A stretch of DNA of 64,000 nt from Deltaproteobacteria bacterium (GCA_029262315.1 JAJCZP010000260.1:1980-65979); one strand, 5' to 3'. Positions 15,000 through 53,614 are shown, numbered from the stretch's first letter. Notes: generated by a model from the sequence alone, not told the origin. Translations and numbers: made by a program.

Positions 15000-16487
15000 T
15001 CAATCCAGGCCGAAAACCGTATCGGTCAGGTCCCCGGCAACCGACAGCGCCGAATCGCCAACGCACCCTACCGAGAACTCAGGATCGAACAGACAGCCAT
15101 CCAGCCCCGTCGTCGAACCACACTTCTGGATGACGCCGTCGACCTTGTCCTTCAGCTTGGCGAGCGCCTCGGCGTGCTCGGTCGCACAATCGACAGCCAC
15201 GGCTGCGGTGATGTTGTCGAGTTCGCAGCGCCCGAGAATCTTCAGTCCCTTGGCGATGGCCTTGCCGCTTTGCTTCAACAACTGACGCTGACACGAAACC
15301 GTCTTCCCAGCGATGACATTCGCGGGCAGATCGGGTGGCGCGGTGCCGAGCGCGGCCGTCAGGGTAGCATCACGCCCCTCGTCCTGGCGGCACACGAGGC
15401 AATCGACGAGGCCCTCGTACGTGTTAGTCTGAATGGCGCCGCACCCGCCCCCACACACATCGGGATACCCGATAAACGAAGGCGACAGGTTGTTCCCGTC
15501 GCAGCGACGATCCTTCGCACCGCCTATCCGCTCGCGCAGCTTCGCTTCGGCGTTCTCGATCTTCAGGTCGCGTCGGGCCGTATCGCAGGCCACGCCCTGC
15601 ACCTCATCGAGGTAGCAACGGTTCCACTCTTTCGAATGCCTCTTGGCGAAGCGTTGAAAGTTCTTGTCGATCTCGCGGAAACAGGTGGACCGGTTTTCGG
15701 CGGATGCCAGCGGCGTTACGACGCCAAACGCCTGAATCGGTACGTCGATGATCGGCTCGTCCGGATCATCCGACACGATGCGGAAATCGTCGTTCAGGAA
15801 GACGAAACCGGCCGGCGTGAATTGGATCTCGACAATGATGCTCGAGTTGATGGGAATCGTGACCGGCAGCGCTGGTCCGCTTACGGCAAGCTCGGGATCG
15901 GTCCCATCGACCAGCCCGTACGACGTCACCTCCAGCGGCACCGAGCTTCCGTTGTTGAAGATCTCGATCCCCGCCGTCGCAAGCTCCCCAGCTTCTCCAA
16001 TGATCGAAAGGTCCGTCGGAGCGACACGGATGTCGTGCGGCACGAGACACGACGCCACCATCGGCGTGATGAACGTGTGCCAGTCGCTCGGCGCACCGTT
16101 GGCCAGCAGGAAGTTGCTGCACGAATATCCCGGCAACGTGAGGTAGGTCATGATCTCATCGCCGTTCGTGAAACCGTCGCTGTCGCTGTCGTCGCCCTCG
16201 ATGTCCAGCAACGACTGCGTCACCGTCTTACCGAGATAGAGCTGCTGCTCCACGGCACCGCCGAACTGATTGCGCGCGCCCGTCCCGGTCCACTTGATGT
16301 GACACACACCACACGCGTTCAAGTTGTCACTGCCACCGATCCCGTAGAGGGTCGTGAACGCATCGAAATAGGTCGGCCGTGCGTGCGCCATCGAAACTGT
16401 CAGAATGAGAGCACCGACGGCGCACCCCGCCAACGCGATCCGCCGCGCCAAAGGCACTCTCGCCGTCGCGCTCATCGTCGTACTCAT
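15000..16487 (-). CDS. Secreted monoheme c-type cytochrome with a DxDxDG Ca-binding loop, a beta-sandwich region and a C-terminal ~225-aa Cys-rich module
   Basis: Signal peptide; one CxxCH (CGVCH); DSDSDGFTNGDE. The C-terminal module is homologous to those in the two upstream genes. Its start overlaps the upstream stop (ATGA). Confidence 0.75.
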   Translation of the reverse strand: MSTTMSATARVPLARRIALAGCAVGALILTVSMAHARPTYFDAFTTLYGIGGSDNLNACGVCHIKWTGTGARNQFGGAVEQQLYLGKTVTQSLLDIEGDDSDSDGFTNGDEIMTYLTLPGYSCSNFLLANGAPSDWHTFITPMVASCLVPHDIRVAPTDLSIIGEAGELATAGIEIFNNGSSVPLEVTSYGLVDGTDPELAVSGPALPVTIPINSSIIVEIQFTPAGFVFLNDDFRIVSDDPDEPIIDVPIQAFGVVTPLASAENRSTCFREIDKNFQRFAKRHSKEWNRCYLDEVQGVACDTARRDLKIENAEAKLRERIGGAKDRRCDGNNLSPSFIGYPDVCGGGCGAIQTNTYEGLVDCLVCRQDEGRDATLTAALGTAPPDLPANVIAGKTVSCQRQLLKQSGKAIAKGLKILGRCELDNITAAVAVDCATEHAEALAKLKDKVDGVIQKCGSTTGLDGCLFDPEFSVGCVGDSALSVAGDLTDTVFGLD

Positions 16488-18904
16488 GGGTACACCACCC
16501 TCGTGTGCTCATCCACAATGTCGCCGATCGCCGCCTCCATACACGCCTGCGTGGTCGGAGCATCGCCACCGATCGCGCACCCCTGGAGACCGCCGAAGTC
16601 CGTACAACGCGCGATCTTGTTGCCGGCCTTGGTCATCGCTTTCGCTATCTTCCCGTCCGGATCGGTCGAGCAATCGAGCGCCGGATTGTTCTTGCCACTC
16701 GCGTTCGCCTGCTCACAACGATCGAGCGCCTTGGTCCAACCGAGAGCCAGACTGCTCGCAGCTTTCGAGAGCGTGCGCTGGCACGTAAGGGCGCTGGCCG
16801 GCAGGCCCCCCGGAACATCTGGCGGCGCGGCCCCGTACGCCGAGTCCAACGCTGCCGCGTCGAGGGCGTCGGCCATACAAATGGCGCAACTCGCAAGATC
16901 CGCCATTTCGAACAGCAGAATGCCGCTGCACGGCGCTGGGCACACGGCATCGTGGCCGAGTGAACCCGGGGTCAAGCTTCGACCGGCACATTTCCGATCC
17001 TTCAAGCCACCGATCTTGTCACGAAGCTTGGCCGCGGCGGCCGCGATCTTCTCATCACGTCCTCCGTCGTCGCACGTGAGGCCTTTGGTCTCGGTGTCGA
17101 AGCAGCGCGTCCACTCCTTGAGGTGACGCTTGCGGTACTTCGCCTGCTGCCGCGCGAGATCCTTGCGGCACCCGTTCACGATCTTGGCGTCCGACTCGAC
17201 GAAGAGGTTCGCCATCTCGACCGGAAGCGATTTGTTGTGCTGCTCCCAGAGATCGAACAGGATGTTGCCGGCCGCGTTCGTGGTGTTCTCGTCCCGCAGA
17301 AACTCGATGTATTCGCGCGATGCCGTTTGGTAGTAGAGCGTCACTTCCGCCTGCACCGCCTCCGGACCCACAGGGTAGACGACGTCGTCCCAGTACTGAC
17401 CGTCGGCGTACGCTTGCCCGACCGGCTCACCATCGAAAGCGTCGAACGCCGCGTTGGTGAACCCGCGGGGCGGGATCCGGTTGTCGAAGAACCGCTTGTT
17501 GTTCAGCACCACATGAAAACTGTTGCCTTCCGGCACACCGGTCGCGGCAGCGGCCGCGGCCGTCAAACCGTAGTCGGCTCTCCAGATGTGCAGATCAGGA
17601 TCATGGCCGGGATCGTTCGGATCGAGACCGGCGCCCTCGATCGTCGAGGTCGCGAAGACATAGCGACCCGATTCGAAGACGACGTTCCGACTGGCGTCGA
17701 GCGCACGCACGTGCAACCACATGCGCCGCCCCTCGGGATACCCCGTGGGAAGCTTGTGGCCGCTCTCGTTCGTGACGCGCACCGTGAGGTTGCCACCCGA
17801 AAAATCGGCGGAGACGCTCGCGGCCTTGCGCAGCATCTTGGTTGCTTCGACGATGCCATCATTCAGGATGTCGGCATCGACTTCAGCGCCGAACGCGGGA
17901 TGATGCGGCAAGACGGCAGGGATGAAGGTATTCCCTCCCACCATCGTATGCAGCGGGATATCGTCCCGGACGAGTCCGACGTTGGCGTCACGCCCAGTGA
18001 CATCGGGAAAGTGGCAGTCCTGACAACTAGAGACGACGTCCTTGTTGCCACCGAACTGGGGCGCGAACACTCCTGTCGCGGCGTACTCGCTTTCCTTCCA
18101 TTCGTCGTACGTAGATTGCTCGGGAAAACCGAGCGCGGGATCGCCAGGGGCATCGAGTGCATTGAAATCGTACTCGTCGGTGATGGCGTTGTACGTATAG
18201 GTGGGGATCCGAACGTTGTGACACGTCCCGCATAGATCGGAACTCTCGTGGAACGGCGAGATCAACACCGAGCGATCTGGCAGGTGCGGATCGGAGCCGA
18301 GATCGCCGATAATGTCGAACGGTCCGCGCATGCGATCCAACGGATCGATCACGAACATCGCATCCGCCAGGACCGGCACTGGCTCCGCAAGGCCGGCCAA
18401 GATTGCAACGTCCTCGGCCGGATGCCCTGGCGCACCGAACGGGTCGACCATGCGGTGACACACGCCGCACTGCACTCCGTGGCGGTCGTCGGCCGTCATC
18501 ATGCTGCCGTCCGTGGCGGCTGATCTGCCCTCGAGCCACCCCTTGGGGAGATGGCATCGCAGGCAGGTCTCGCCGGACTTGCTGGCGTCCTGATTGGCAA
18601 TGGCAAGCCCCGCCCACATCAGCGGGTCGCGACCTGCCTGCGCCATCATTGAACCCTCCCAATTGCGCCATGGCTCAACGTCAGGCTGGCCATAGTCGGC
18701 ATGGCAGGGAGTACAGGTATCGGGTGTTGGTATGTCGTCTGTAATCGTCAGCGGCTGCGTTCCGGGTAACCGGAAGTCGTTGGTCGTCGTCGCCAGCGGG
18801 AGCTGTGCCCGCGCCGGCACGATCGAAACGAGGAACAGCATGGGGAGTGCCAGAAGCACTCCCCATGCCGACCGTATACCCAGTCCGAGTCGCAGTTCGA
18901 TCAT
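16484..18904 (-). CDS. Secreted pentaheme c-type cytochrome with a C-terminal Cys-rich module
   Basis: Signal peptide. Five CxxCH motifs: CTPCH, CLRCH, CGVCH, CGTCH, CQDCH. C-terminal 230 aa are homologous to the C-terminus of gene 15000..16487. Confidence 0.85.
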   Translation of the reverse strand: MIELRLGLGIRSAWGVLLALPMLFLVSIVPARAQLPLATTTNDFRLPGTQPLTITDDIPTPDTCTPCHADYGQPDVEPWRNWEGSMMAQAGRDPLMWAGLAIANQDASKSGETCLRCHLPKGWLEGRSAATDGSMMTADDRHGVQCGVCHRMVDPFGAPGHPAEDVAILAGLAEPVPVLADAMFVIDPLDRMRGPFDIIGDLGSDPHLPDRSVLISPFHESSDLCGTCHNVRIPTYTYNAITDEYDFNALDAPGDPALGFPEQSTYDEWKESEYAATGVFAPQFGGNKDVVSSCQDCHFPDVTGRDANVGLVRDDIPLHTMVGGNTFIPAVLPHHPAFGAEVDADILNDGIVEATKMLRKAASVSADFSGGNLTVRVTNESGHKLPTGYPEGRRMWLHVRALDASRNVVFESGRYVFATSTIEGAGLDPNDPGHDPDLHIWRADYGLTAAAAAATGVPEGNSFHVVLNNKRFFDNRIPPRGFTNAAFDAFDGEPVGQAYADGQYWDDVVYPVGPEAVQAEVTLYYQTASREYIEFLRDENTTNAAGNILFDLWEQHNKSLPVEMANLFVESDAKIVNGCRKDLARQQAKYRKRHLKEWTRCFDTETKGLTCDDGGRDEKIAAAAAKLRDKIGGLKDRKCAGRSLTPGSLGHDAVCPAPCSGILLFEMADLASCAICMADALDAAALDSAYGAAPPDVPGGLPASALTCQRTLSKAASSLALGWTKALDRCEQANASGKNNPALDCSTDPDGKIAKAMTKAGNKIARCTDFGGLQGCAIGGDAPTTQACMEAAIGDIVDEHTRVVYP

Positions 18905-18908
18905 GAAT

Positions 18909-20849
18909 CTATGGCGTTATGTCGCAGTCGTTCTGGCCGTTGCCGAACGGAAAGGCCGTAGTGAAGAGAACACCGTCCGAACCGAGGTTCGCGGTTTGGC
19001 AGTTCTCCTGGTTTCCACCGTCGGTACCGAATGCCATCGCGATGTCCGCGAAGACCGGGATCCCCGCCTGGGGAGCCTGCGCATTCAGCAACAGGAAATT
19101 CCGGCGGATCAAGTTATTGAAAGTGTCCGGGTCGCCACTGAGGACCGGGAACGGGTCTGGGTCGACCAATGTATTCGCCGCCGATTGATCGATCACCAGG
19201 ACGCCGAACGTATCGTTGTCGCGGATGATGTTCGCCTCGAACAGACTGTTGTCGTTCGAGACGATCATGATCCCGGTGCCGCGGGGAACGACCGCAACCG
19301 TACCGGATCCGAAGTTGTCGGTGCTGTTCGACTCGATCACGTTGTTCAGCACCAAATGATCACCGGACTGATCAACGAGAGTCGGATCCTTGAATACCAG
19401 GACACCGCCCGTGTTCTCGGTGATGTAGTTGTTATGCCCGAAGCCGTTGAGGCTATTCTCGAACTCGATCGCGGCCACGCCCCGACGGATGTCGTTGAAC
19501 CGGATCTCAAAACCGTCCGACTGACCGACATAGACGGGCGCATCGTCCTCACGCTCCAGAGTGCAGGCCTCGATGAGAATGCCCGTGCTCAGGATCGGGA
19601 ACACCGCGTAGCGCGTCTCCTCGAGACCGTTGTCGACGATGTCGCGGAAGGTGACGCCAGTCGCCGAGGAGACAAAGATTCCGTTGTCGTCCCAACCCTC
19701 GAAGCGCAAGCTCTGGAACGTCAGTCCGTCGACGCTCACCGCGTTCATGCCGTTGTCGTAAGTCAAGTCCGCGGCTGGGAGGAAGGGCCGATCGTTGGTC
19801 GCAGCACCGCACCCGATGAGACTCAGGTCGTCCGTACCAATCGGGATGTTGACGCCGTGGTTGTCCAAGACAGGGAACGTAGGCTCCTCATCGTAGGTAC
19901 CGGTGCGAATGAGAATCTTGTCGCCCGCGCTTGCCGCCGTCACCGCCGCCTGGATCGCGTTGGCAGCGCCCGGCACGACCACGGCATCGTAATCTTCGCC
20001 GTACGCGGCGTCGACGAGACTGAGAACGCCGTTCCAACCATTGCAGATCACGCATTCCTGCAGATCCGCCTCGGTGGAAGCCCCCGAGCACGCGAAGACC
20101 GATCGAATGAAGCCGAAGGTCGGATCGGTCTGGCCCAACAAGGTGAGTTCACAGCTCTTGGCGATCTTCTCCTCGGTCTTCGTGGTCAGCTTGTCGAGCG
20201 ACTCAGCTGTCTTCACGTCGGTCGGCGGCACGAAGACCCCACCCGAGTATTGCCCGACACATGCGTCCGCAATGTTGCCGGCAGCCTGGTCTTTCATCGC
20301 CTTGTCGATGCACTTGCTCACCGTTTTCAGCTGCCCGAGGACGTACTTCTGACCGAGCTTGCCCAGGTCCTTGACGCACTTGGCGCGCGGCTTCGGCGTC
20401 TCCTGGAAAGGGTCTTCGGTCGCGATGCCGGTAAAATGGCCGACCAGGACTTCGGTCTCGACGGCGTACTGCGACAACCCGCATTCCGAGATGAGGGTGT
20501 CGTCGGCCGAGCCGCCATAGCTCGAAGAAAGACCGGCCTGCACCGAGTCGACACCGCATGCCTTCGTGATCTTCTCTTTCGTCTTCAACGCCGCCTTCTC
20601 CATCTTCTCGGTCGCCTTGGCGGTGGGACACGTGCCCGTGGGCTCCTTGAGCCGACACTTGCTGAGCTCCTTCATCTTGGTCTTGGCGTACTTTCCGAGC
20701 TCTTTCGCGATCGTCTTCTGACACTTCAAGGAGTCCGGGTCGACGGCGGTGATGGCGCTCGGCGCCCGATCGGAACAGGCCTGAGCGGCCATCGAGACCG
20801 TGGGAATGAGAAGCGCGCCAAGGGCGCCAAGGGCGACGAGTGCTTTCAT
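18909..20849 (-). CDS. Secreted right-handed parallel beta-helix (NosD/pectate-lyase-like) protein with an N-terminal Cys-rich module
   Basis: Signal peptide. N-terminal ~255 aa (two KC ... C ... KI ... KxC sub-repeats) form the Cys-rich module. PbH1-type repeats follow (NNYITENTGGVLV, NNVIESNSTDNFG, SNDNSLFEANIIRDND). SD TAGGAGGAT lies before the ATG. Confidence 0.8.
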   Translation of the reverse strand: MKALVALGALGALLIPTVSMAAQACSDRAPSAITAVDPDSLKCQKTIAKELGKYAKTKMKELSKCRLKEPTGTCPTAKATEKMEKAALKTKEKITKACGVDSVQAGLSSSYGGSADDTLISECGLSQYAVETEVLVGHFTGIATEDPFQETPKPRAKCVKDLGKLGQKYVLGQLKTVSKCIDKAMKDQAAGNIADACVGQYSGGVFVPPTDVKTAESLDKLTTKTEEKIAKSCELTLLGQTDPTFGFIRSVFACSGASTEADLQECVICNGWNGVLSLVDAAYGEDYDAVVVPGAANAIQAAVTAASAGDKILIRTGTYDEEPTFPVLDNHGVNIPIGTDDLSLIGCGAATNDRPFLPAADLTYDNGMNAVSVDGLTFQSLRFEGWDDNGIFVSSATGVTFRDIVDNGLEETRYAVFPILSTGILIEACTLEREDDAPVYVGQSDGFEIRFNDIRRGVAAIEFENSLNGFGHNNYITENTGGVLVFKDPTLVDQSGDHLVLNNVIESNSTDNFGSGTVAVVPRGTGIMIVSNDNSLFEANIIRDNDTFGVLVIDQSAANTLVDPDPFPVLSGDPDTFNNLIRRNFLLLNAQAPQAGIPVFADIAMAFGTDGGNQENCQTANLGSDGVLFTTAFPFGNGQNDCDITP

Positions 20850-21155
20850 GGATAATCCTCCTAGAGCATCGAGTGTGGTTTATGGAGGGCCCACCGTCTC
20901 GGCGCACGGGTACACAGAGCGCGCGGGAGTGGCTGTGGAAATTTTACGATCGGCGGCACCATCAGGACGACAGGAAACGACACAGAATACAGAACGTTAG
21001 TACGCATGCCGAAGTGCACCGGGGATGTCAACGGCGCACCGTGTCATAGCAAGTGCGATAGGGCTTCGCCGGACCCTCCTTGTGGGAACCCGTCGAGGAC
21101 CATACGCTGATCCTGCGAGTCCATCGGCTCGGGCCAATCGACGTGTGGAGGATGC

Positions 21156-21938
21156 ATGACGAAGAGTGGGTTCCTTTCATTGGCGACGGCGGTGCTCCTC
21201 ATGGGCCAAGCCGGCACTGCCGTAGGCATGGACAGCGAGTCGCTGCGACTCCTGCTACTCGGCACGCAGGACAACAACACGCCGCGCACGCTGCTACGCG
21301 CCGATGTCGAACTAGCCCTGAAGACACATGCTGGCGAGCGCGCGACCGAGGCAATCGCGCTTTTCGTTCCCGGGAAGGACGCGCGTTGGTACCTCCAAGT
21401 AAAAGACCCGGCTATCTCCGCGTTGATCTTGGGTACCGAGCGCAAGGTCCTTCAACGCACCGAGAACGGCACCGACACGGTCCCGATCAGCGCATCCATC
21501 GGGAATCTCGACATCAGCTATGAGGATCTCAGTCGCTTCATCGAGAGCGACCTCAAGCTCTGGCAGATCACCGATGAGAGCCGAGACAAGGTCCTCATCG
21601 GCGGCCACGCCAAAGCCAAGTCCGCCTACGTCTACCGTGCGTACAGCATCGACAAGGAGCGAAAGGTCATCCTGAAGGCGCAATTCTACTCGGAATCACT
21701 CAGCAACCTGGTCAAGCTCCGCGTCGACGAAGAACACGTCCTCATCGGGAAAAAGTGGCACCCGGGCAAGATCGAGATCCAGAACTTCCCCGAGAACTCG
21801 ACGACGACGCTGCGCCTGCGCTGGAAGCAGGCGGCAACCGCGCCGCCGGAACTGCTCGCGGCCGAGAGTTTCTCATCAACGACGCCGCTACCGTGGCCGC
21901 CCGTCGCGAGTGCCTCCGGCGACACGGCGGGCGAATAG
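21156..21938 (+). CDS. Secreted LolA-like / outer-membrane lipoprotein-sorting-like protein (hypothetical)
   Basis: Signal peptide and GGAGGA RBS. The family assignment is a weak inference from composition and length. Confidence 0.5.
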   Translation: MTKSGFLSLATAVLLMGQAGTAVGMDSESLRLLLLGTQDNNTPRTLLRADVELALKTHAGERATEAIALFVPGKDARWYLQVKDPAISALILGTERKVLQRTENGTDTVPISASIGNLDISYEDLSRFIESDLKLWQITDESRDKVLIGGHAKAKSAYVYRAYSIDKERKVILKAQFYSESLSNLVKLRVDEEHVLIGKKWHPGKIEIQNFPENSTTTLRLRWKQAATAPPELLAAESFSSTTPLPWPPVASASGDTAGE

Positions 21939-21993
21939 ACAGCCTCGTCCGACGCTGGCCGGCGCGCGCCATGCGAGAGCGGGAATCGACTGC

Positions 21994-23487
21994 CTACTCG
22001 ACGTAGCCGAGTGATTTGAGGCGCTCGCGCGCCTCGGCGGACACTCGCGGCGCAACCTTCGGCGCGGTCAACAGCTCCCCTTTCGCGTACTCTGCGGGGC
22101 GGCCGGCCGGATCGGGATCGGTCCTACTGAGTTCGACGAGTCGCGTGGGGATCGGAGCACTCGGGTCCCACGGCTGCGCCCGCAGCTCATCAGGGTCGCC
22201 AACGAGATCATAGCGGCGCTGCTGTGTCGTCGCCCGACTGGGCGCCCACACCTGTGTCATCCACTTCGCATCGCGAGTCACCGCTGCGCGCCACTGCTTC
22301 TTTCTGCCCCACGTAGCCTCGACGAACACAGGCCGGGTCGCAGTCAACCCGGTACCATCGCGAAGATCGACCGGGCGCATGGTCGGCGGCGGCGCCGCCC
22401 CGATGAAGCGAAGGATCGTCGGCGCGATGTCGACCCCCGAGGCCGGTTCCTCGCGTCGCGCGCTCACGATGCCCGGCCCGCGGAGCATCAACGGCACCCG
22501 TACGATCTCGTCATAGACATGGTACCCGTGCGTGAACCAACGCTCGTGTTCCATCATGCTCTCGCCGTGATCGGCGGTGAACACGACGAGCGCATCGTCG
22601 ATCGAACGCAGCGCGGCGAACCGGTCGAGAAGCCGTCCGATCTCCGCGTCGGTATACGCGATCTCTTCGTCGTAGCGATCAACATAGGCGAGACCGTCGG
22701 TCACGCCGGGCTCGCGCTGATAGGCAGGCACGCGAGCGATCTTGATCGGCCGCGCGCCCTCATGCGTGAACGAACGCGGCCGGTCGGCGGGTGGGCGATA
22801 CGGCCCATGCGGATCGATGTAGTGCACCCAAAGAAACACGGGGCGGGCGGGATCCGCGCGGCCCGCAAGCCAGCGAAGCGCCGCATCGGTCGTGCGAACC
22901 GCGTTCCGCTCGTACACGACCCGCGACGATTCCCGCTCGTCGACGAAATCGTCGTAGTGATCGAATCGGTCCGCCAATCCGATGGCCTCGTCGGTCAAGA
23001 CCATGTTCGACACGATGGCGGCGGTCTCGTATCGATCAGGCAGGAGCTCAGGAAGAACGGGCGTCGCCGCCGGGAGCAATTGGTAGAGCAATCGGACGCC
23101 GTGCTCCTGGGGAAGCAATCCTGAAAGAACACTCACGAGGCTCGGCGACGTGTTGGCTTCGGTCGAGTACGCCCGCTCGTAGATTGCGCCGTCCCCGAAC
23201 CAGCGATCGAGTTGCGGCGTCGTCGCGCGCCCGTAACCGTAGAGGCTCAGATGATCGGCCCGCAAGGTATCGACGGTAATGAGGAGCACATCGGCAGGAC
23301 CACGCGCGGGACCGCGCGCGGGGCCGCGACACCCGGTGCCACCGAAAAGACAAGCAATCGCGACGAACGTAGCGATCACTAGACGCGGCAGCGCGCTAGC
23401 TGGACGACCGCGGGCCCGCGTCGATCGTATCGCGGAGAGGATTTCGCCGATCGCCCGCTCGGCAGGCGGTGCGGGTATCGCGGTCAC
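21994..23487 (-). CDS. Sulfatase-like hydrolase/transferase (alkaline-phosphatase superfamily)
   Basis: ITVDTLRADHL metal site and TADHGE. The N-terminal TM/signal region contains a GPARGPARGPA repeat. The canonical C/S-x-P-x-R motif is replaced by S-P-S-L. Confidence 0.8.
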   Translation of the reverse strand: MTAIPAPPAERAIGEILSAIRSTRARGRPASALPRLVIATFVAIACLFGGTGCRGPARGPARGPADVLLITVDTLRADHLSLYGYGRATTPQLDRWFGDGAIYERAYSTEANTSPSLVSVLSGLLPQEHGVRLLYQLLPAATPVLPELLPDRYETAAIVSNMVLTDEAIGLADRFDHYDDFVDERESSRVVYERNAVRTTDAALRWLAGRADPARPVFLWVHYIDPHGPYRPPADRPRSFTHEGARPIKIARVPAYQREPGVTDGLAYVDRYDEEIAYTDAEIGRLLDRFAALRSIDDALVVFTADHGESMMEHERWFTHGYHVYDEIVRVPLMLRGPGIVSARREEPASGVDIAPTILRFIGAAPPPTMRPVDLRDGTGLTATRPVFVEATWGRKKQWRAAVTRDAKWMTQVWAPSRATTQQRRYDLVGDPDELRAQPWDPSAPIPTRLVELSRTDPDPAGRPAEYAKGELLTAPKVAPRVSAEARERLKSLGYVE

Positions 23488-44980: not shown

Positions 44981-46675
44981 ATGTCTAGACTTGGAGATCT
45001 TCTCGTCCGCCGAGGCGAGATCGAGGAAGCGCAGCTGGAGCGGGCGCTCGGTGAGCAGCGGACCAACGGGGGCGCGCTTGCGAGCCACCTGGTCAAGCTG
45101 GGACTGATCGCGGAGGACGCACTCCTTTCGTACCTGCAGAAGGAGTACCGGCTGCCGGTCGTCGACCCTTCGAGCCTCGAGATCGAGCCCGAGGTATTGG
45201 CGCTCATTCCAACGCAGATGGCGCACAAGCACCACATGATCCCGGTCAATCTGGTGCGCTCGACCTTGACGATGGCGATGGCGGATCCATCGAACCTGAT
45301 CGCGATCAACGAAGTCAAGTTCCTCACGAGCTACGACGTCAAGATCGCCGTCGCGGGCGCGACGGCGGTTCAACGTGCGATCGACCGCTACTACGACGCC
45401 GGCTCGAGCTACGACGACGTCTTGAACGAGATCGACGGCGGCGACGACGTCCAGCTCGTGCAGAGCGAGGAGGAAGTCAACCTCCAGGAGCTCGAACGCG
45501 CCACCGAGGAGGCGCCTGTCGTCCGCCTCGTGAACGCCCTCATGATGGACGCGATCAAGAAACGGGCGAGTGACATCCACGTCGAGCCCTACGAGAAGAT
45601 CCTCCGCATCCGTTTCCGGATCGATGGCGTATTGCACGAAGTGATGCAGCCACCGATCAAGCTGAAGAACGCGATCACCTCGCGTATCAAGGTCATGGCC
45701 CAGCTCGACATTGCCGAGCGTCGGATGCCGCAGGACGGCCGCATAAAACTGAAGATGACGCGCAACCGCGAGATGGACTTCCGCGTCTCGGTCCTTCCCA
45801 CCATATTTGGCGAGAAGGTGGTGCTCCGCCTCCTCGACAAGTCGAATCTTCAGCTCGACATGACGAAGCTCGGTTTCAGCGAACGTGCCCTCGCCGACTT
45901 CAAGGACGCAATCTACAAACCGTTCGGCATGGTGCTGGTCACCGGCCCGACGGGCAGCGGCAAAACGACCTCGCTCTACTCGGCCCTCTCCGAGCTCAAC
46001 AAGGTGACGTCGAACATCTCGACCGCGGAGGATCCTGTCGAGTTCAACCTCATGGGCATCAACCAAGTACAGGTGCACGAGGAGATCGGCTTGTCGTTCG
46101 CGGCGACGCTGCGATCCTTTCTACGGCAGGATCCGGACATCATCATGGTCGGTGAGATCCGCGACTTCGAAACGGCCGAGATCGGCGTCAAGTCCGCCCT
46201 CACGGGGCACCTCGTGCTCTCGACCCTGCACACCAACGACGCCCCCTCCACCATCAACCGACTCCTGAACATGGGCATCGAACCCTTCCTGGTCGCGTCC
46301 TCCATCAATCTCATCATGGCGCAACGCCTCGTGCGCGTGCTCTGCCCAGGATGCCTTGAAGAAACCGAGATCACGCCCGAGGCGTTGGTCGCCATCGGCA
46401 CGCCGCCCGAAATGGCAGAGACCATGCGCTGCTACCAGGGGGCCGGCTGCTCGTCGTGCAGCGGCACAGGCTACAAAGGTCGCATCGCACTCTACGAGGT
46501 CATGCCGATGACCGACGGCCTGCGCGAGGTCATCCTCGCAGGCGGCTCCAACAGCGAGATCAAGCGTGCGGCCATCGACGCCGGCATGGACTCCCTTCGC
46601 CGAAGCGGCATCGACAAGATCGCCGAGGGCGTCACATCAATTGATGAAGTCCTGCGGATCACCATGCCCGACTGA
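44981..46675 (+). CDS. pilB: Type IV pilus assembly ATPase PilB
   Basis: GSPII N-terminal domain. Walker A GPTGSGKTT. Tetracysteine CPGC ... CSSC. Confidence 0.9.
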   Translation: MSRLGDLLVRRGEIEEAQLERALGEQRTNGGALASHLVKLGLIAEDALLSYLQKEYRLPVVDPSSLEIEPEVLALIPTQMAHKHHMIPVNLVRSTLTMAMADPSNLIAINEVKFLTSYDVKIAVAGATAVQRAIDRYYDAGSSYDDVLNEIDGGDDVQLVQSEEEVNLQELERATEEAPVVRLVNALMMDAIKKRASDIHVEPYEKILRIRFRIDGVLHEVMQPPIKLKNAITSRIKVMAQLDIAERRMPQDGRIKLKMTRNREMDFRVSVLPTIFGEKVVLRLLDKSNLQLDMTKLGFSERALADFKDAIYKPFGMVLVTGPTGSGKTTSLYSALSELNKVTSNISTAEDPVEFNLMGINQVQVHEEIGLSFAATLRSFLRQDPDIIMVGEIRDFETAEIGVKSALTGHLVLSTLHTNDAPSTINRLLNMGIEPFLVASSINLIMAQRLVRVLCPGCLEETEITPEALVAIGTPPEMAETMRCYQGAGCSSCSGTGYKGRIALYEVMPMTDGLREVILAGGSNSEIKRAAIDAGMDSLRRSGIDKIAEGVTSIDEVLRITMPD

Positions 46676-46819
46676 GCGGGCGGTGCGCCACGCTCCGAAC
46701 CGGCAATTTCGTGACGAGACGGCGCCGAATGACGCCGCCAGACGAAAAAGACGCAGCCCCGGCAACGGCGCCCGTGGCATGTCGCTTGCTCTCTGCAGTA
46801 GCCGTCAGGGACCCGTCTC

Positions 46820-47923
46820 ATGGTGAACATTCAAGATTTTCTTCAGCTGATGCTCGAAGCGGGCGCGTCCGATCTGCACATCACCCAGGAGAGCCCGCCC
46901 CTCATTCGCGTACATGGCGAACTGCGTCCGCTAGCGTATCCACCGCTCACCGCCACCGATACGCGAACGCTGTGCTACAGCATTCTGACCGAGGCGCAGA
47001 AGAAGAAGTTCGAGGAAGACAGCGAGCTCGACTTCTCGTTCGCCGCGGCCGGTGTCTCGCGCTTTCGCGGCAATCTCTATCTCCAGAAGGGCGCTGTCGG
47101 CGGGGCCTTTCGCGCGATTCCCTACGAGATTCCCGCCCTCGACACCCTCGGACTCAGCAAGGCGGTTCTCGATCTCGCGGAGCTGCCCCGTGGCCTCGTG
47201 CTGATTACCGGCCCGACGGGCAGCGGCAAGTCGACGACCCTCGCGGCGATCATCGACAAGATCAACGAAACCCGGCCCGAGCACATCATCACCGTCGAGG
47301 ATCCCATCGAGTTCGTGCATACGCACAAGCGCGCGATGGTGAACCAACGCGAGGTTTTCGCCGACACGCAGAGCTTCGCCAAGTCACTGAAACACGTACT
47401 GCGGCAGGATCCGGACATAGTCCTCATCGGTGAGATGCGTGACCTCGAGACAATCGAGGCCGCGCTGGTCGTCGCCGAGACGGGTCACCTCGTGTTCTCG
47501 ACACTACACACCAACTGCGCCGTCCAGACGATCAACCGTGTCATCGACGTGTTCCCGCCGCATCAGCAGGAGCAGGTACGCGCCCAGCTCTCGCTGGTGC
47601 TGCAAGGCGTGGTGTCGCAACAGCTGCTACCGCGTTGGGACGGACGCGGGCGTGTGCTCGCCGCCGAGGTCATGGTCCCGAACCCCGCCATCCGCAACCT
47701 CGTCCGCGAGGCGAAGGTGCACCAGATCTACTCGCAGATGCAGGTCGGCCAACAGAAGTGGCACATGCAAACGATGAGTCAGGCCCTGATCAGCCTGCAT
47801 GAGCGCAAGCTGATTACAGCCGACGAGGCCCTCGCGCACGCCACCGAGCCAGAAGAGATGAAGACGTTGCTGGCGCAGTTCGGTGACGGACCAAGTCCCG
47901 TGCGACGGGCGGCACGACAGTAG
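46820..47923 (+). CDS. pilT: Twitching motility ATPase PilT
   Basis: GPTGSGKSTT, the AIRNLVRE motif; typical 367 aa. Confidence 0.9.
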   Translation: MVNIQDFLQLMLEAGASDLHITQESPPLIRVHGELRPLAYPPLTATDTRTLCYSILTEAQKKKFEEDSELDFSFAAAGVSRFRGNLYLQKGAVGGAFRAIPYEIPALDTLGLSKAVLDLAELPRGLVLITGPTGSGKSTTLAAIIDKINETRPEHIITVEDPIEFVHTHKRAMVNQREVFADTQSFAKSLKHVLRQDPDIVLIGEMRDLETIEAALVVAETGHLVFSTLHTNCAVQTINRVIDVFPPHQQEQVRAQLSLVLQGVVSQQLLPRWDGRGRVLAAEVMVPNPAIRNLVREAKVHQIYSQMQVGQQKWHMQTMSQALISLHERKLITADEALAHATEPEEMKTLLAQFGDGPSPVRRAARQ

Positions 47924-47946
47924 GACCGCGACAGAAGGAGCAGGCG

Positions 47947-49164
<1,218 letters not shown>

Positions 49165-49166
49165 GG

Positions 49167-51188
49167 ATGACGGCTCACGAGGGGACGAACGACGGAAACG
49201 TTGGCCTGCGCCGGCGTCTCGGCTGGCTGCTGATCGTCCGGCTGGGCCTCGTATCGCTCTTTCTCGCCGTTGCGGCAGTCGTCTACCGCCCGCATGCAAC
49301 CGAGACCCTCGATCCTCGCCTCGGACTGCTCGCGCTCGGATACGGCGTCACCGCGATCTCCGGGCTTCTGCTCGGACGTGTACGCAGGATTCTGGCCTTC
49401 GCGGGACTGCAACTCGCCGTCGATCTCGCGCTCGTCAGTCTCGTGATCCTCGTCACGGGCGGGCTCGATAGCCCACTGGCGGTTCTGTACAACGTCGTGA
49501 TCCTGAACGCCGCCCTGCTCGGACTGGGCCCTGGAATCACGGCGACCGCGGCAGCGGCTGCGGCTGTCTACGGCGGATTGATGACGACACTGGCGCTCGA
49601 AGCGCCCGCCAGCCTGCCGATGGGGCCCTACATCTTCAGCCACACGACCATCGTCGCGTCATTCTTGGTGATTGCCGCGCTTGCCCGCTATCTCGGCACA
49701 CAACTCGCCGTCGCCGAGTCACTCCTCGTCGAACGGCAAGCCGAAATCGGACGGATCGAAACGCTGCAGAGTCTGGTCGCCAACACCCTCGACCACGGGC
49801 TCGTGACCACGGACAGCAGCGGTCGGGTCCAGACGTCCAATCCCACCGCGGCCGAGATCCTCGGGACGCACCCCCCCGTGGGAGCCTCGCTCGACGTAAG
49901 CTTGCCGGGAGCCGCGATGCTTCCGATTGGTGGCGCGCCAACGGAGCTGGCCCTCGGCGCAGAGGGCGAGTCGTCGCGGTTGGTCCGCGCGAAAGTCGCC
50001 GAGGTCACCGACACGTTCCAGCGACCAGTCGGCCGCATCTACGTGCTCCAGGACGTGACGACCGTTCGGGAGATGGAGTCCAAGCTCCGCGATCAGGAAA
50101 CGATCGACGCGTATGCTGCCAGGGCCGTCCAAACACACGACGACGCTCCCATCGCGGCGTTCGAAGGCCTCGTCGGTGAGAGCGAGCCGATGCGACGGGT
50201 CTATAGCCTGATCGACAAGGTTGCACCTTCCGATTCCACCGTCCTCATCACGGGGGAAAGCGGCACGGGCAAAGAGCTCGTCGCCCGCGCGATCCATCAG
50301 CGGAGCCCGCGACGCGACCGCGACTTCGTGGCGGTGAACTGTGGAGCCATCCCCGAGTCCCTGATCGAGAGCGAACTCTTCGGCCATGTCCGCGGCGCGT
50401 TTACTGGTGCCGTCGTGGACCGACCTGGCCTCTTCCGCCAAGCGCATGGCGGCACGATCTTCCTGGATGAGATCGGCGAGCTTCCCTTGGCGATGCAGGT
50501 CCGACTCCTGCGGGTACTCCAGGACCAGCAACTCGTTCCCGTCGGAGGTACCGCCACAACGACGGTCGACGTCCGCGTCGTCGCGGCGACCAATCGCAAC
50601 CTCGAACGTTCCGTCAGCGAGGGCGCCTTCCGCGAAGACCTGTACTACCGCTTGAACGTCATCCGCATCGAAACCCCCTCGCTCCGGGAACGCCCCGAGG
50701 ACATACCGCTCTTGCTCACGCACTTGCTACAGACCTGCTCTGCCCGGCACGGCAAGATCGTCGAGCGGGTCTCGCCCCGCACGATGCGAGCGCTCGTGAC
50801 CTACAACTATCCCGGCAACGTTCGCGAGCTCGAGAACGCCGTCGACCACGCGATCACCCTCTGCGAGGGCGACGCCCTGACGGAGCACGACCTGCCGGCG
50901 CAGTTGCACTCCCCGCCCGACACGCCGAGCGGCCCGACTCCGACGACGACTCCGGGGTCAGCCGCGCCGACACCGCCGCGGCTGACCCCGGGACTCGACC
51001 TCGACGACCAGCTCGCCACCTACGAGAAGGACATGATCCTCGCCGCGCTCGATCAAGCGCAGGGCGTCCGGAAACACGCCGCGGAGATCCTTGGCATCAA
51101 GTACCGAAGCCTGCGGCACCGGCTCTCGAAGTACGGACTGGCCATCACTGACGAGGACGACGGGCTCGGATCGAGCACCGCCTCTTAG
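49167..51188 (+). CDS. Membrane-anchored sigma-54-dependent activator: PilS-like 6-TM sensor region + PAS fused directly to a PilR-like AAA+/Fis HTH output (no kinase or receiver domain)
   Basis: Six N-terminal TM helices, a PAS-like segment, then GESGTGKE, GAFTGA and ESELFGH sigma-54 interaction motifs, and a C-terminal HTH. No HisKA/HATPase or D-containing REC is seen. Confidence 0.8.
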   Translation: MTAHEGTNDGNVGLRRRLGWLLIVRLGLVSLFLAVAAVVYRPHATETLDPRLGLLALGYGVTAISGLLLGRVRRILAFAGLQLAVDLALVSLVILVTGGLDSPLAVLYNVVILNAALLGLGPGITATAAAAAAVYGGLMTTLALEAPASLPMGPYIFSHTTIVASFLVIAALARYLGTQLAVAESLLVERQAEIGRIETLQSLVANTLDHGLVTTDSSGRVQTSNPTAAEILGTHPPVGASLDVSLPGAAMLPIGGAPTELALGAEGESSRLVRAKVAEVTDTFQRPVGRIYVLQDVTTVREMESKLRDQETIDAYAARAVQTHDDAPIAAFEGLVGESEPMRRVYSLIDKVAPSDSTVLITGESGTGKELVARAIHQRSPRRDRDFVAVNCGAIPESLIESELFGHVRGAFTGAVVDRPGLFRQAHGGTIFLDEIGELPLAMQVRLLRVLQDQQLVPVGGTATTTVDVRVVAATNRNLERSVSEGAFREDLYYRLNVIRIETPSLRERPEDIPLLLTHLLQTCSARHGKIVERVSPRTMRALVTYNYPGNVRELENAVDHAITLCEGDALTEHDLPAQLHSPPDTPSGPTPTTTPGSAAPTPPRLTPGLDLDDQLATYEKDMILAALDQAQGVRKHAAEILGIKYRSLRHRLSKYGLAITDEDDGLGSSTAS

Positions 51189-52021: not shown

Positions 52022-53614
52022 GTGCCCGTCCGTCTCATCTTTCATATGCTCTGGGTAGCCACGGCACTCCGCGTACTCGTCCCGTCCTTCGCGGACCCAG
52101 ACCTCTGGGGTCATGTGCTCTTCGGCTCCATTCTTCTTGGCGGAGCACTCCCCGCCGTCAACGGATTCGCCTACACCGCGGCCGATCATCCGTGGGTGAA
52201 CCACGAACTACTCGCCGAGATCTCGATGGCCGCCGTCTTCAACGCCGGCGGTGCCGGCGGGCTGATCGCGTTCAAGGTCGGCCTCGGGCTCGCCACCCTT
52301 TTCTTGGTCTGGCGCGCGGCGTTCCATCGGACGCACAATCACGTCGCGAGCGGCATCGCGACCGCCGTCGTCGCCATCGCCATGACGCCGGGCTTCATGA
52401 TCCGACCACAGATCTTCACCCTGCTCTTCCTCGCGGCGACGCTCGCCGAACTCGCCAAGGTCGACTATCGCCCACGAGGCATGGTCTGGGGGTTGCCCCT
52501 TCTCTTCGTCGTATGGATCAATACCCACGGCGGCGTGCTGGCGGGCCTCGGGCTCGCCGGCGTCGGCGTCGTCGCGGCGCTCGCGGGACGCTGGCGGAGC
52601 GGCGAGCGCCGACTGCCTGACGTAGTCACGAGCGGCCTGTTCCTCGCGACGCTCGCCTTGGCCTTGCTCCTGAACCCCTGGGGTGTCGGACTCCTGGACT
52701 TCCTCGCGACCGACGTCACGCCACAAGTGGCCATCACCGAGTGGGCGCCCGTCTCACTGACGGACGCCTCGTTCCCGATGTTCAAGGTGCTCCTGATCCT
52801 GGTCGCGGCATACTGCCTGCTCGGCCGGAACATTCGCCTTCCTGAAGCGGCCATCGCGGTCGCCGCGGGGATCGTCGCCATCATGCACCAACGCCACATC
52901 CCGTTGTTCGCGATCGCCGCGACGCCGATCATCGCGACCGCGGTCGCGCAGTGGTGGGACGCGCCGACACGAGAACCCTTGCGACGCTTGGCCTACGGCC
53001 TGTGCGCTGTGCTTGCCGTCGTGCAGCTCGGAATTGCCACAACCGCGGGCATCGCGGCCCGCGGCCAGATCTTCGTCAATCCATGGCACTACCCGGTGCA
53101 AGCTGTCCGGTTCCTCGCCCAGAACGACATCGCGGGCAACGTCGCCCTGCCCTTCCAGTGGGGCGAATACGCGATCTGGGCGCTCCCCTCAGGATCGCGT
53201 GTCGCCGTCGATGGTCGATTCACGACCGCCTATCCGCAGACGCTGCTGAGCTCCGTCTGGCGCTTCATGAGCGGAGAGCCACAGTGGGATACCCTCCTGA
53301 CCGACTATCCGACCGACATCGTCATCAGCGACCGCAATCACGCGCCGGCGACGCTCCTGCGCGATCATGAGGAATGGGAGTACGTCTACTCCGATCCAGT
53401 CAGCGTGGTGTTCATCCGGCATGTAGACTCGCAGGCGGACACGCTCGCGCGCTTCCACGGCGGCTCGCTACGCTACGACAACAGCCCGCTCGATACGTCG
53501 TTCCCTGGCCCGTACCAGGGAAACACCGACGCCGAAGCCCCGTTCGTGCCCACGGCGGACTGCCGACTCACGGCGGACACCCCCCCTGGCGCAGAGCGCC
53601 CAGACTTCTGCTAA
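52022..53614 (+). CDS. Polytopic membrane protein (GT-C-fold-like) immediately downstream of pilA; possible pilin-modifying glycosyltransferase
   Basis: ~11 TM helices and a large periplasmic C-terminal domain. RBS GGGAGGAAG. An alternative ATG lies at 52046. Confidence 0.6.
   Translation: MPVRLIFHMLWVATALRVLVPSFADPDLWGHVLFGSILLGGALPAVNGFAYTAADHPWVNHELLAEISMAAVFNAGGAGGLIAFKVGLGLATLFLVWRAAFHRTHNHVASGIATAVVAIAMTPGFMIRPQIFTLLFLAATLAELAKVDYRPRGMVWGLPLLFVVWINTHGGVLAGLGLAGVGVVAALAGRWRSGERRLPDVVTSGLFLATLALALLLNPWGVGLLDFLATDVTPQVAITEWAPVSLTDASFPMFKVLLILVAAYCLLGRNIRLPEAAIAVAAGIVAIMHQRHIPLFAIAATPIIATAVAQWWDAPTREPLRRLAYGLCAVLAVVQLGIATTAGIAARGQIFVNPWHYPVQAVRFLAQNDIAGNVALPFQWGEYAIWALPSGSRVAVDGRFTTAYPQTLLSSVWRFMSGEPQWDTLLTDYPTDIVISDRNHAPATLLRDHEEWEYVYSDPVSVVFIRHVDSQADTLARFHGGSLRYDNSPLDTSFPGPYQGNTDAEAPFVPTADCRLTADTPPGAERPDFC

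Follow-up and report, generated by a model that had tools for sequence, protein, structure and literature searches.

The described systems closest to the locus treated here are multiheme cytochromes c. The PHC family includes proteins of cable bacteria, Geobacter ExtKL and Gsu2801; kinship of PHC proteins with the AvECN nanowire and with ExtKL, the latter in a porin-cytochrome cluster, has been discussed, and no catalytic role is assigned to the c552 prototype (PMC11976967). Pentaheme proteins of the PtdA type adjoin porins (bioRxiv 10.1101/2023.11.21.568154). MccSep, which is ExtKL (GSU2937-2936; PDB 9wt8), has been described as a multiheme selenoprotein polysulfide reductase, in which catalysis involves a Cys-ligated heme 2 (C239) and the selenocysteine (Sec) U325 on a D-G-U-P loop of the immunoglobulin (Ig)-like domain (bioRxiv 10.1101/2025.11.18.688581). 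The subject of this analysis is a three-gene operon, with genes designated A, B and C, on a 64-kb stretch of DNA (64,000 nucleotides, hereafter the window) from Deltaproteobacteria bacterium (GCA_029262315.1, JAJCZP010000260.1:1980-65979). A search of the literature found no paper describing this operon, the subfamily of its pentaheme protein B or the Cys-rich module shared by its three products, and none addressing the extracytoplasmic redox biology of Binatota.

Coordinates, strands and letters are those of the window, and all three genes lie on its minus strand:

18909..20849, minus strand: gene A, 646 residues; signal peptide, N-terminal Cys-rich module and parallel beta-helix domain
16484..18904, minus strand: gene B, 806 residues; pentaheme c-type cytochrome with heme domain, Ig-like beta domain and C-terminal module
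15000..16487, minus strand: gene C, 495 residues; monoheme/Ca-binding domain, beta-sandwich-like region and C-terminal module

A first-pass annotation, made from the sequence alone, had given these coordinates together with a 4-nt gap between A and B (18905-18908) and an overlap of the B stop with the C start as ATGA (16484-16487), and all of these were found as described. The signal peptides it had assigned to the three products were also recognised, each as a hydrophobic leader with an AxA-type site, judged by eye. Among window open reading frames (ORFs) of at least 100 residues, CxxCH motifs occurred exclusively in B (five) and C (one).

The reading we favour, with a confidence somewhat above even, is that this is a conserved Binatia-type (Binatota/UBP10) operon encoding three Sec-exported proteins that would form one extracytoplasmic electron-transfer unit, with the module as tether. 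B would provide, in the c552/PHC fold, a domain with five hemes and after it an Ig-like one. C would supply a sixth heme on a small Ca-binding domain, and B and C together would form a hexaheme chain, as is suggested by the coupling and fusion of their genes. A would be a beta-helix protein recruited in this lineage only, most likely a substrate-binding or catalytic partner served by the heme chain. The module would hold A, B and C together, or on a common envelope component, and would stand outside the redox chemistry.

Conservation of the operon was assessed at the level of both proteins and loci. A homologue search with residues 1-572 of B returned more than 4,277 homologues, and the best 120 were examined. 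These were mostly 770-860 residues long (a few were truncated), 60-79% identical to B, and, where named, came under the names of 'Candidatus Binatia' or of Myxococcota, Thermodesulfobacteriota and Deltaproteobacteria metagenome-assembled genomes. The C-terminal module was present in all 120, and exactly five CxxCH motifs were counted in each of the 118 longer than 700 residues. The locus survey, with one genome per species, covered at least 593 species with a B relative; 20 Binatia-type loci (L001-L020, 5.8-18 kb each) and 64 non-Binatia loci were compared.

Across the lineage, B orthologues were 55-79% identical. Gene C lay directly downstream of B in 20/20 Binatia-type loci, and gene A directly upstream of B in L001-L015 and L017, that is, in 16 of the 18 loci retaining the 5' flank of B (for A, L019 and L020 say nothing, as their sequence starts within B). 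The genes upstream of B in L016 and L018 were ftsH and folP, not A. Two contigs with B homologues showed the order beta-helix gene, cytochrome gene and a gene for 484-489 residues, with different flanking genes. The 4-nt overlap of B and C was also present in L001 and L003, where the orthologues of A and C were 43-45% and 46-47% identical, respectively. Domain layout and heme counts of the orthologues were the same as in A, B and C, and the LolA-like and thi neighbours seen in the window recurred in its closest relatives alone (L006-L009). Since the flanks vary and A is missing in two loci, the conserved unit is B-C, usually with A. Synteny of the trio in relatives, with order, architecture and heme counts kept, was thus confirmed in 16 of 18 informative Binatia-type loci; a universal linkage of A was not, as A is absent beside B in L016 and L018 and B-C is the invariant core.

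Evidence for a link between B and C came from other phyla. In 21-24 of the 64 non-Binatia loci, a C-type heme domain was fused N-terminally to the B core in one ORF, giving proteins with six CxxCH motifs and about 860-1,100 residues (stop-to-stop) in Planctomycetota, Verrucomicrobiota, Eisenbacteria and others. One further locus of the 64 carried the domain as a separate upstream ORF, and it was not detected in 39, six of which had no upstream sequence. Fused and separate C domains alike kept Y48, CxxCH, G-x-G-x-R-N and D-x-D-x-D-G...E. This fusion in other phyla, taken with the conserved translational coupling, is the strongest evidence for a single heme chain, and B and C probably work together as one hexaheme unit. 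The hexaheme fusions at L022, L026, L042, L049, L064 and about 20 more non-Binatia loci also had C-terminal extensions of at least 100 residues past the B core.

Three features of C were delimited:

16038..16379, minus strand: monoheme domain, residues 37-150, with CGVCH59-63, G-x-G-x-R-N and a calcium-type loop
16155-16196, minus strand: calcium-type loop D100-x-D-x-D-G...E111, with conservation taken over 43 sequences
15759..16016, minus strand: beta-sandwich-like region, residues 158-243, with sub-threshold matches

The single CxxCH of C (CGVCH59) and its Ca-binding loop had both been noted in the first pass and are both present. The loop, DSDSDG...E, corresponds to D100-x-D102-x-D104-G105...E111, and its acidic positions were 100% conserved in 43 homologues. 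For the beta-sandwich-like region, sub-threshold matches alone were obtained, to choice-of-anchor D (20.8 bits vs a cut-off of 45, E = 4e-4) and, in the L001 orthologue, to ASH (graded 'weak'), and this part of the earlier description is kept as tentative. Two further sub-threshold matches covered the first heme/Ca-loop region only, one to the GEGP-motif diheme model NF041762 (25.7 bits vs a cut-off of 300) and one to Temptin_C (22.1 bits vs a cut-off of 27). Across the 43 sequences of the monoheme domain, Y48, R72 and N73 were nearly invariant, and no second His or Met reached 85% conservation; the heme of C may have unusual ligation or be completed by the partner protein.

The features of B outside the module were as follows:

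17822..18799, minus strand: pentaheme domain, residues 36-361, with five CxxCH motifs
17195..17821, minus strand: Ig-like beta-sandwich domain, residues 362-570, with DSSP strands in the AlphaFold2 (AF2) model and pLDDT above 90
17717..17770, minus strand: signature N379-ESGHKLPTGYPEGRRMW-396 of the B family, with the invariant Tyr389 at 17738-17740

Exactly five CxxCH motifs were found, the same as those listed in the first pass (CTPCH64, CLRCH114, CGVCH146, CGTCH225 and CQDCH294), and each was at least 95% conserved among 81 sequences taken from several phyla. None of the 10 Cys in residues 1-578 lies outside these motifs. The AF2 model of full-length B, built with 82 homologues (pLDDT 92.5, pTM 0.90), showed helices in the heme domain (about 40-361) and throughout the C-terminal module, with a beta domain (362-570) in between. 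When this model was compared with the PDB by Foldseek, the sole significant match was 5ZE8, the penta-heme cytochrome c552 of Thermochromatium tepidum (E = 1.6e-12), on which modelled B could be superposed over the whole domain. No sequence similarity of B to 5ZE8 was found by phmmer/hmmsearch, and PDB sequences gave nothing meaningful when searched by phmmer with A, B and C. By sequence, B had sub-threshold or short matches to cytochrome c7, MtrC domain II/IV, c554 and ExtKL models. Given the five CxxCH, the Ig-like domain and the fold match to 5ZE8, B is, as judged from its predicted structure, a member of the penta-heme c552/PHC fold family and a new subfamily of it. The earlier remark that neither module nor trio could be assigned to a named system holds for the module, which matches no family, and is amended for the pentaheme protein, which can be assigned to this fold family.

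The B core (residues about 37-565) also occurs beyond the Binatia group, with 43-51% identity, in Planctomycetota/Phycisphaerae, Chloroflexota, Verrucomicrobiota, Eisenbacteria and Latescibacteria. No conserved neighbour gene was found for the B family outside Binatia beyond small subsets, a comparison to which high-GC shadow ORFs add noise.

A correspondence with MccSep was seen in the Ig-like part of B, which aligns to the Ig-like domain of that protein. The most conserved signature of B, 'TNESGHKLPTGYPEGRR', aligns to the MccSep loop 'TNHAGHSIPDGUPTPNR', with Tyr389 at the position of Sec325; in the profile alignment of the B family with 9wt8, 'tnesGhklPtGyPeGrr' stands against 'TNHAGHSIPDGXPTPNR'. 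In the same 81 sequences, conservation of at least 95% was found for Tyr389 and G-H-K-L-P-T-G-Y...G-R-R-x-W, as well as for the non-motif ligand candidates H219, H319, H383, H464 and M87. As only four non-motif His and M87 are available for five hemes, one heme of B may have unusual ligation.

These data bear on the possibility that B acts as an MccSep-type catalyst in its own right, in which a non-bis-His heme 2 would face the Ig-like loop and Tyr389, R393 and R394 would form the active site. B would then act on a small inorganic or organic substrate, with C as electron-entry heme and A as accessory, a proposal that does not exclude the electron-transfer unit. It draws support from the fold family shared with MccSep and c552, from the alignment of the Sec325 loop to the top-conserved signature G-H-K-L-P-T-G-Y-P-x-G-R-R, and from the limited set of four conserved non-motif His plus M87 for five hemes; the family is also kept alone, without any conserved neighbour gene, in at least 593 species, as would suit a self-contained enzyme. 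However, Tyr replaces Sec/Cys, no Cys lies outside CxxCH in residues 1-578, the ExtKL model scored 18.8 bits vs a cut-off of 250, and the c552 prototype is without an assigned catalytic role (PMC11976967). On balance we regard this proposal as rather unlikely. Assignment of B to MccSep/ExtKL proper (NF040886) was rejected, the match covering residues 368-419 only, with Tyr for Sec/Cys and no C239. With a conserved Tyr at the Sec position and no heme-ligating Cys, the chemistry of B would therefore differ from that of MccSep.

A further step would be to take the B family, with the C-type sixth-heme domain, as a new class of multiheme enzyme with an active site of the invariant Tyr and an Arg pair, placed as the selenocysteine is in MccSep, and assembled in Binatia through the docking module. 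This is speculative, and we consider it unlikely. If true, it would concern at least 593 species of Binatia, Planctomycetota, Chloroflexota, Verrucomicrobiota and Eisenbacteria, mostly aerobic, uncultured lineages, and a reaction new for cytochromes c; A would be assembled through a disulfide-rich six-helix docking domain, and the module would also structure much of the proteome that this lineage secretes.

Transfer of electrons to or from insoluble minerals, or a polymerising cytochrome nanowire, in the manner of MtrC/OmcA or of archaeal ECN filaments, for which a relation to c552 has been put forward, was weighed against the same results and is considered improbable. The Pfam MtrC/MtrF domain II/IV match reached 28.1 against a threshold of 30, a relation of PHC proteins to the AvECN nanowire and the porin-cytochrome ExtKL has been discussed (PMC11976967), and PtdA-type pentaheme proteins adjoin porins (bioRxiv 10.1101/2023.11.21.568154). 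On the other side, neither the window nor relatives showed a gene for a porin, a decaheme protein or an inner-membrane quinol oxidase close to the trio, the Foldseek matches to OmcA and MtrC were not significant (E 0.2-0.6), and Binatota have been described chiefly as aerobic methylotrophs and alkane degraders (PMC8262859). Identification of B as an MtrC/OmcA decaheme protein was rejected on the sub-threshold match (PF22113), the Foldseek values for 4LMH and 6QYC, and the presence of five hemes only.

For protein A, the parallel beta-helix proposed in the first pass was borne out by two Pfam models above their gathering thresholds, Beta_helix (PF13229; 47 bits, cut-off 25.9) and NosD (PF05048; 38 bits, cut-off 23.6):

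19164..19955, minus strand: parallel beta-helix domain of A, residues 299-562 (TIGR03805 at 299-558, Pfam Beta_helix at 390-561)

TIGR03805 is the family to which this domain comes closest; the match covered 255 of 314 model positions with E = 2.7e-37, at 128.5 bits just under a cut-off of 141.5. According to the TIGRFAMs description, TIGR03805 parallel beta-helix proteins pair genomically with exported, heme-motif TIGR03806 proteins of the SO_2930 type. A resembles them as an exported beta-helix protein encoded beside c-type cytochromes; it differs in its sub-cut-off score, in its N-terminal module and in its neighbours, as neither B nor C gave a TIGR03806 match at E <= 1. A role of A in N2O-reductase maturation as NosD (TIGR04247) was rejected at 15.9 bits vs 300, with no nos genes in the flanks.

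The three copies of the shared Cys-rich module, about 235-265 residues in length, were located as follows:

19980..20777, minus strand: module of A, residues 25-290, 13 Cys, CVIC at 266-269
16487..17188, minus strand: module of B, residues 573-806, 14 Cys, CAIC at 673-676; two three-helix units
15003..15701, minus strand: module of C, residues 263-495, 14 Cys, CLVC at 363-366

The presence of one module in all three proteins, N-terminal in A and C-terminal in B and C, was the central claim of the first pass, and it was upheld by BLASTP: B 579-776 and C 269-465 were 38% identical (E = 2.7e-38), A 43-180 and B 579-730 25% (E = 2.9e-8), and A 43-137 and C 269-359 32% (E = 1.2e-7). A hidden Markov model (HMM) built from the three copies agreed, matching the A, B and C ORFs alone in a six-frame translation of the window. 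Modelled alone by AF2, the B module was all-helical with two three-helix units (pLDDT 96.4, pTM 0.92). Homology of its halves to each other was found by hhalign (probability 96.4%, E = 1.2e-9), and each half opens with a C-x21-C helix pair.

No Pfam-A or NCBIfam model matched the module, and solved structures resembled it as a generic helical bundle only. The duplicated three-helix bundles of PhoU-like and Pfg27-type proteins show 4-9% identity and generic helical similarity, by which homology is not indicated; those proteins are cytoplasmic and without disulfides, whereas the module is extracellular with 13-14 conserved Cys. Neither of the two outcomes that the first pass had named as refuting its reading, a well-characterised family for the module and a lack of synteny in relatives, was obtained.

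To determine the distribution of the module, 1.84 billion representative proteins, clustered at 50% identity, were searched exhaustively with a profile. At E <= 1e-3 there were 1,157 clusters with the module, of which 526 also passed E <= 1e-10. Word-indexed searches had given 5-6 matches, which was a word-index artefact, and the notion of a very rare module was discarded. In the best 150 of the 1,157, the module was N-terminal in 79 (typically after the leader), C-terminal in 29 and in the middle in 7, while in the remaining 35 it spanned both ends (short proteins or fragments). Module-bearing proteins were of various sizes, with one to five matched stretches each, and the consensus of the wider family retained C-L-x-C.

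Most of the 62 module proteins scanned against Pfam were without any domain. Partner domains in the others were DUF4215, beta-helix, amidohydrolase, FG-GAP, ice-binding-like, Laminin_G_3, Lcl_C, Big_5, legume-lectin, TSP_3 and lactonase. As these belong to the repertoire of extracellular proteins, the module is best described, from its domain combinations, as a promiscuous, undescribed extracellular domain and not as a hallmark of the trio; with 1,157 clusters and many architectures, it cannot serve as the uniting mark that the first-pass annotation had seen in it. The module often follows a signal peptide directly and precedes domains of this extracellular kind. The DUF4215 or Myxococcus-type cysteine-rich repeat co-occurred with the module in 5/62 proteins and in protein P0005 at residues 290-330, and two distinct Cys-rich extracellular elements thus share the same protein population.

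Within the window and the Binatia-type loci, the trio ORFs alone carried the module. It was absent from all non-Binatia B homologues and from 660 kb of non-Binatia flanks, and among B homologues it is joined to B in the Binatia lineage only. Between orthologues, it was less conserved than the heme domains, with 38-57% vs 60-72% identity in B and 35-51% vs 52-70% in C. Since the cytochrome core works without the module elsewhere, and the module may stand at either end and evolves faster, it is most likely a structural tethering or assembly domain, not a redox one. The docking or anchoring role that the first pass had proposed for it is plausible.

The same distribution fits a different account, in which the trio is co-regulated without being assembled via the module, the latter being a general extracellular domain expanded in the lineage, for example for disulfide stability or envelope retention. 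All three proteins would then carry it simply as secreted proteins of their lineage, as hundreds of unrelated secreted ones do. Besides the many unrelated partners and positions in the 1,157 clusters, and the B core and B+C fusion that work without it in other phyla, the divergence of the A copy (21-25% identical to the B and C copies, with a different Cys pattern) speaks for this. It explains less well that all three operon products carry the module when no other ORF in the window or the Binatia-type loci does, and that the copies in B and C, with 38% identity and the same CPxPC and CxxC spacing, constitute a separate subfamily, suggestive of co-evolution. We consider this account the main alternative, though one that is probably not correct.

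A redox-active module, with its CxxC acting as a thiol-disulfide relay that feeds or drains the hemes, appears very improbable. A CxxC is indeed present in every copy (CVIC in A, CAIC in B, CLVC in C), and C-L-x-C in the wider family, but the even number of Cys (14) in B and C, nearly all conserved, fits structural disulfides; in addition, the module occurs in many non-redox proteins (lectins, amidohydrolases, FG-GAP proteins) and has no thioredoxin-like fold. Both a redox-active CxxC and mineral-directed transfer are thus less likely.

Several observations weigh against the electron-transfer unit tethered by the module. A does not lie beside B-C in L016 and L018, and no A-like beta-helix gene was found near the B core in the 64 non-Binatia loci; as A is missing in two loci and never accompanies the B core outside the lineage, its participation is less certain. 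No gene for a porin, a quinol dehydrogenase or another electron entry point was found near the trio. Any physical association of A, B and C is presumed, and the signal peptides are by-eye calls (hydrophobic core plus AxA-type site). The occurrence of the module in many unrelated proteins fits a generic surface-retention or stability domain no less than a mutual docking domain. Finally, the pTM of 0.90 for the full-length B model suggests a module fixed rigidly against its own cytochrome and not free to dock.

The surroundings of the operon were also inspected. Its edges are the block thiS-thiG-thiE, in convergent orientation, and a LolA-like gene in divergent orientation, with housekeeping genes beyond. 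The LolA-like lipoprotein-sorting gene (21156-21938, plus strand; PF17131, 38.7 bits) lies divergently upstream of A; it was found in the same place in the four closest relatives (L006-L009), with 56-61% identity, and not in more distant ones. G+C content over the operon and this upstream neighbour (16001-22000) was 0.61-0.63, vs 0.66-0.68 on either side. The promoter scan at the locus yielded 0 promoter-like sites, terminator-like sites were at chance level, and the Rfam scan of the window gave no RNA family.

At L001 1111-5952, and also in L002, a methylamine dehydrogenase cluster (Me-amine-dh_H, MauE, AhpC-TSA-like and Me-amine-dh_L) and a gene for a 151-residue c-type cytochrome lie directly upstream of the trio. 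This neighbourhood, seen in one lineage only, may point to a connection with methylamine oxidation in the periplasm. At L003 11908-13317, and also in L004, a 112-residue ORF, a DsbA/Thioredoxin_4-type gene and then an FGE-sulfatase gene lie immediately downstream of the trio; a dedicated disulfide oxidoreductase beside it would suit modules with 13-14 Cys. A linkage to sulfatases was rejected, as those near the trio in the window and in L001 are non-orthologous and not recurrent.

Elsewhere in the window, a type IV pilus-type gene set unrelated to the trio was found at 44981-51188, including a T2SSE/MshEN ATPase (44981-46675) and a sigma-54 activator with a PilS-like domain of six transmembrane segments (49167-51188). 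A 530-residue ORF at 52022-53614 (plus strand) had no Pfam match at E <= 1e-5 and may be a shadow ORF in high-GC DNA.

Binatota are abundant, uncultured bacteria. The B family is widespread and strongly conserved, and stands near MccSep in fold space with a different residue at the catalytic position; the position of Tyr389 thus offers a concrete, testable entry point to the function of B and C. Neither Pfam nor NCBIfam covers the module family, which has at least 1,157 clusters at 50% identity; a model of the family would improve the annotation of many 'hypothetical' secreted proteins. The findings on the trio do not overturn current understanding.

When compared with known systems, B is closest to cytochrome c552 (5ZE8), with which it shares five CxxCH in an N-terminal helical domain, a following Ig-like beta domain and an exported, soluble nature. 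It differs in size, the c552 protein having 385 residues and the B core about 530, and in its additional C-terminal module of 234 residues and its place in a three-gene operon. The sPHC and lPHC proteins of cable bacteria, Gsu2801 and PtdA likewise have a pentaheme domain and, at the C-terminus, a beta-sandwich, and occur in many phyla. Their partners are truncated hemoglobin domains, or porins in operons with tetra- or decaheme proteins, and by their descriptions they are set apart from B, none having been reported with a Cys-rich module or a beta-helix protein. With MccSep, B shares the fold family, five CxxCH and the aligned loop motif T-N-x-x-G-H-x-x-P-x-G-[U/Y]-P; it has Tyr389 in place of Sec325 and nothing equivalent to the heme-ligating C239. 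MccSep, in contrast, is a homotetramer of anaerobic sulfur reducers, without the module or a beta-helix partner. Against these systems, the operon architecture is lineage-specific, the cytochrome represents a new subfamily of a known fold family, and the module is an uncatalogued domain family.

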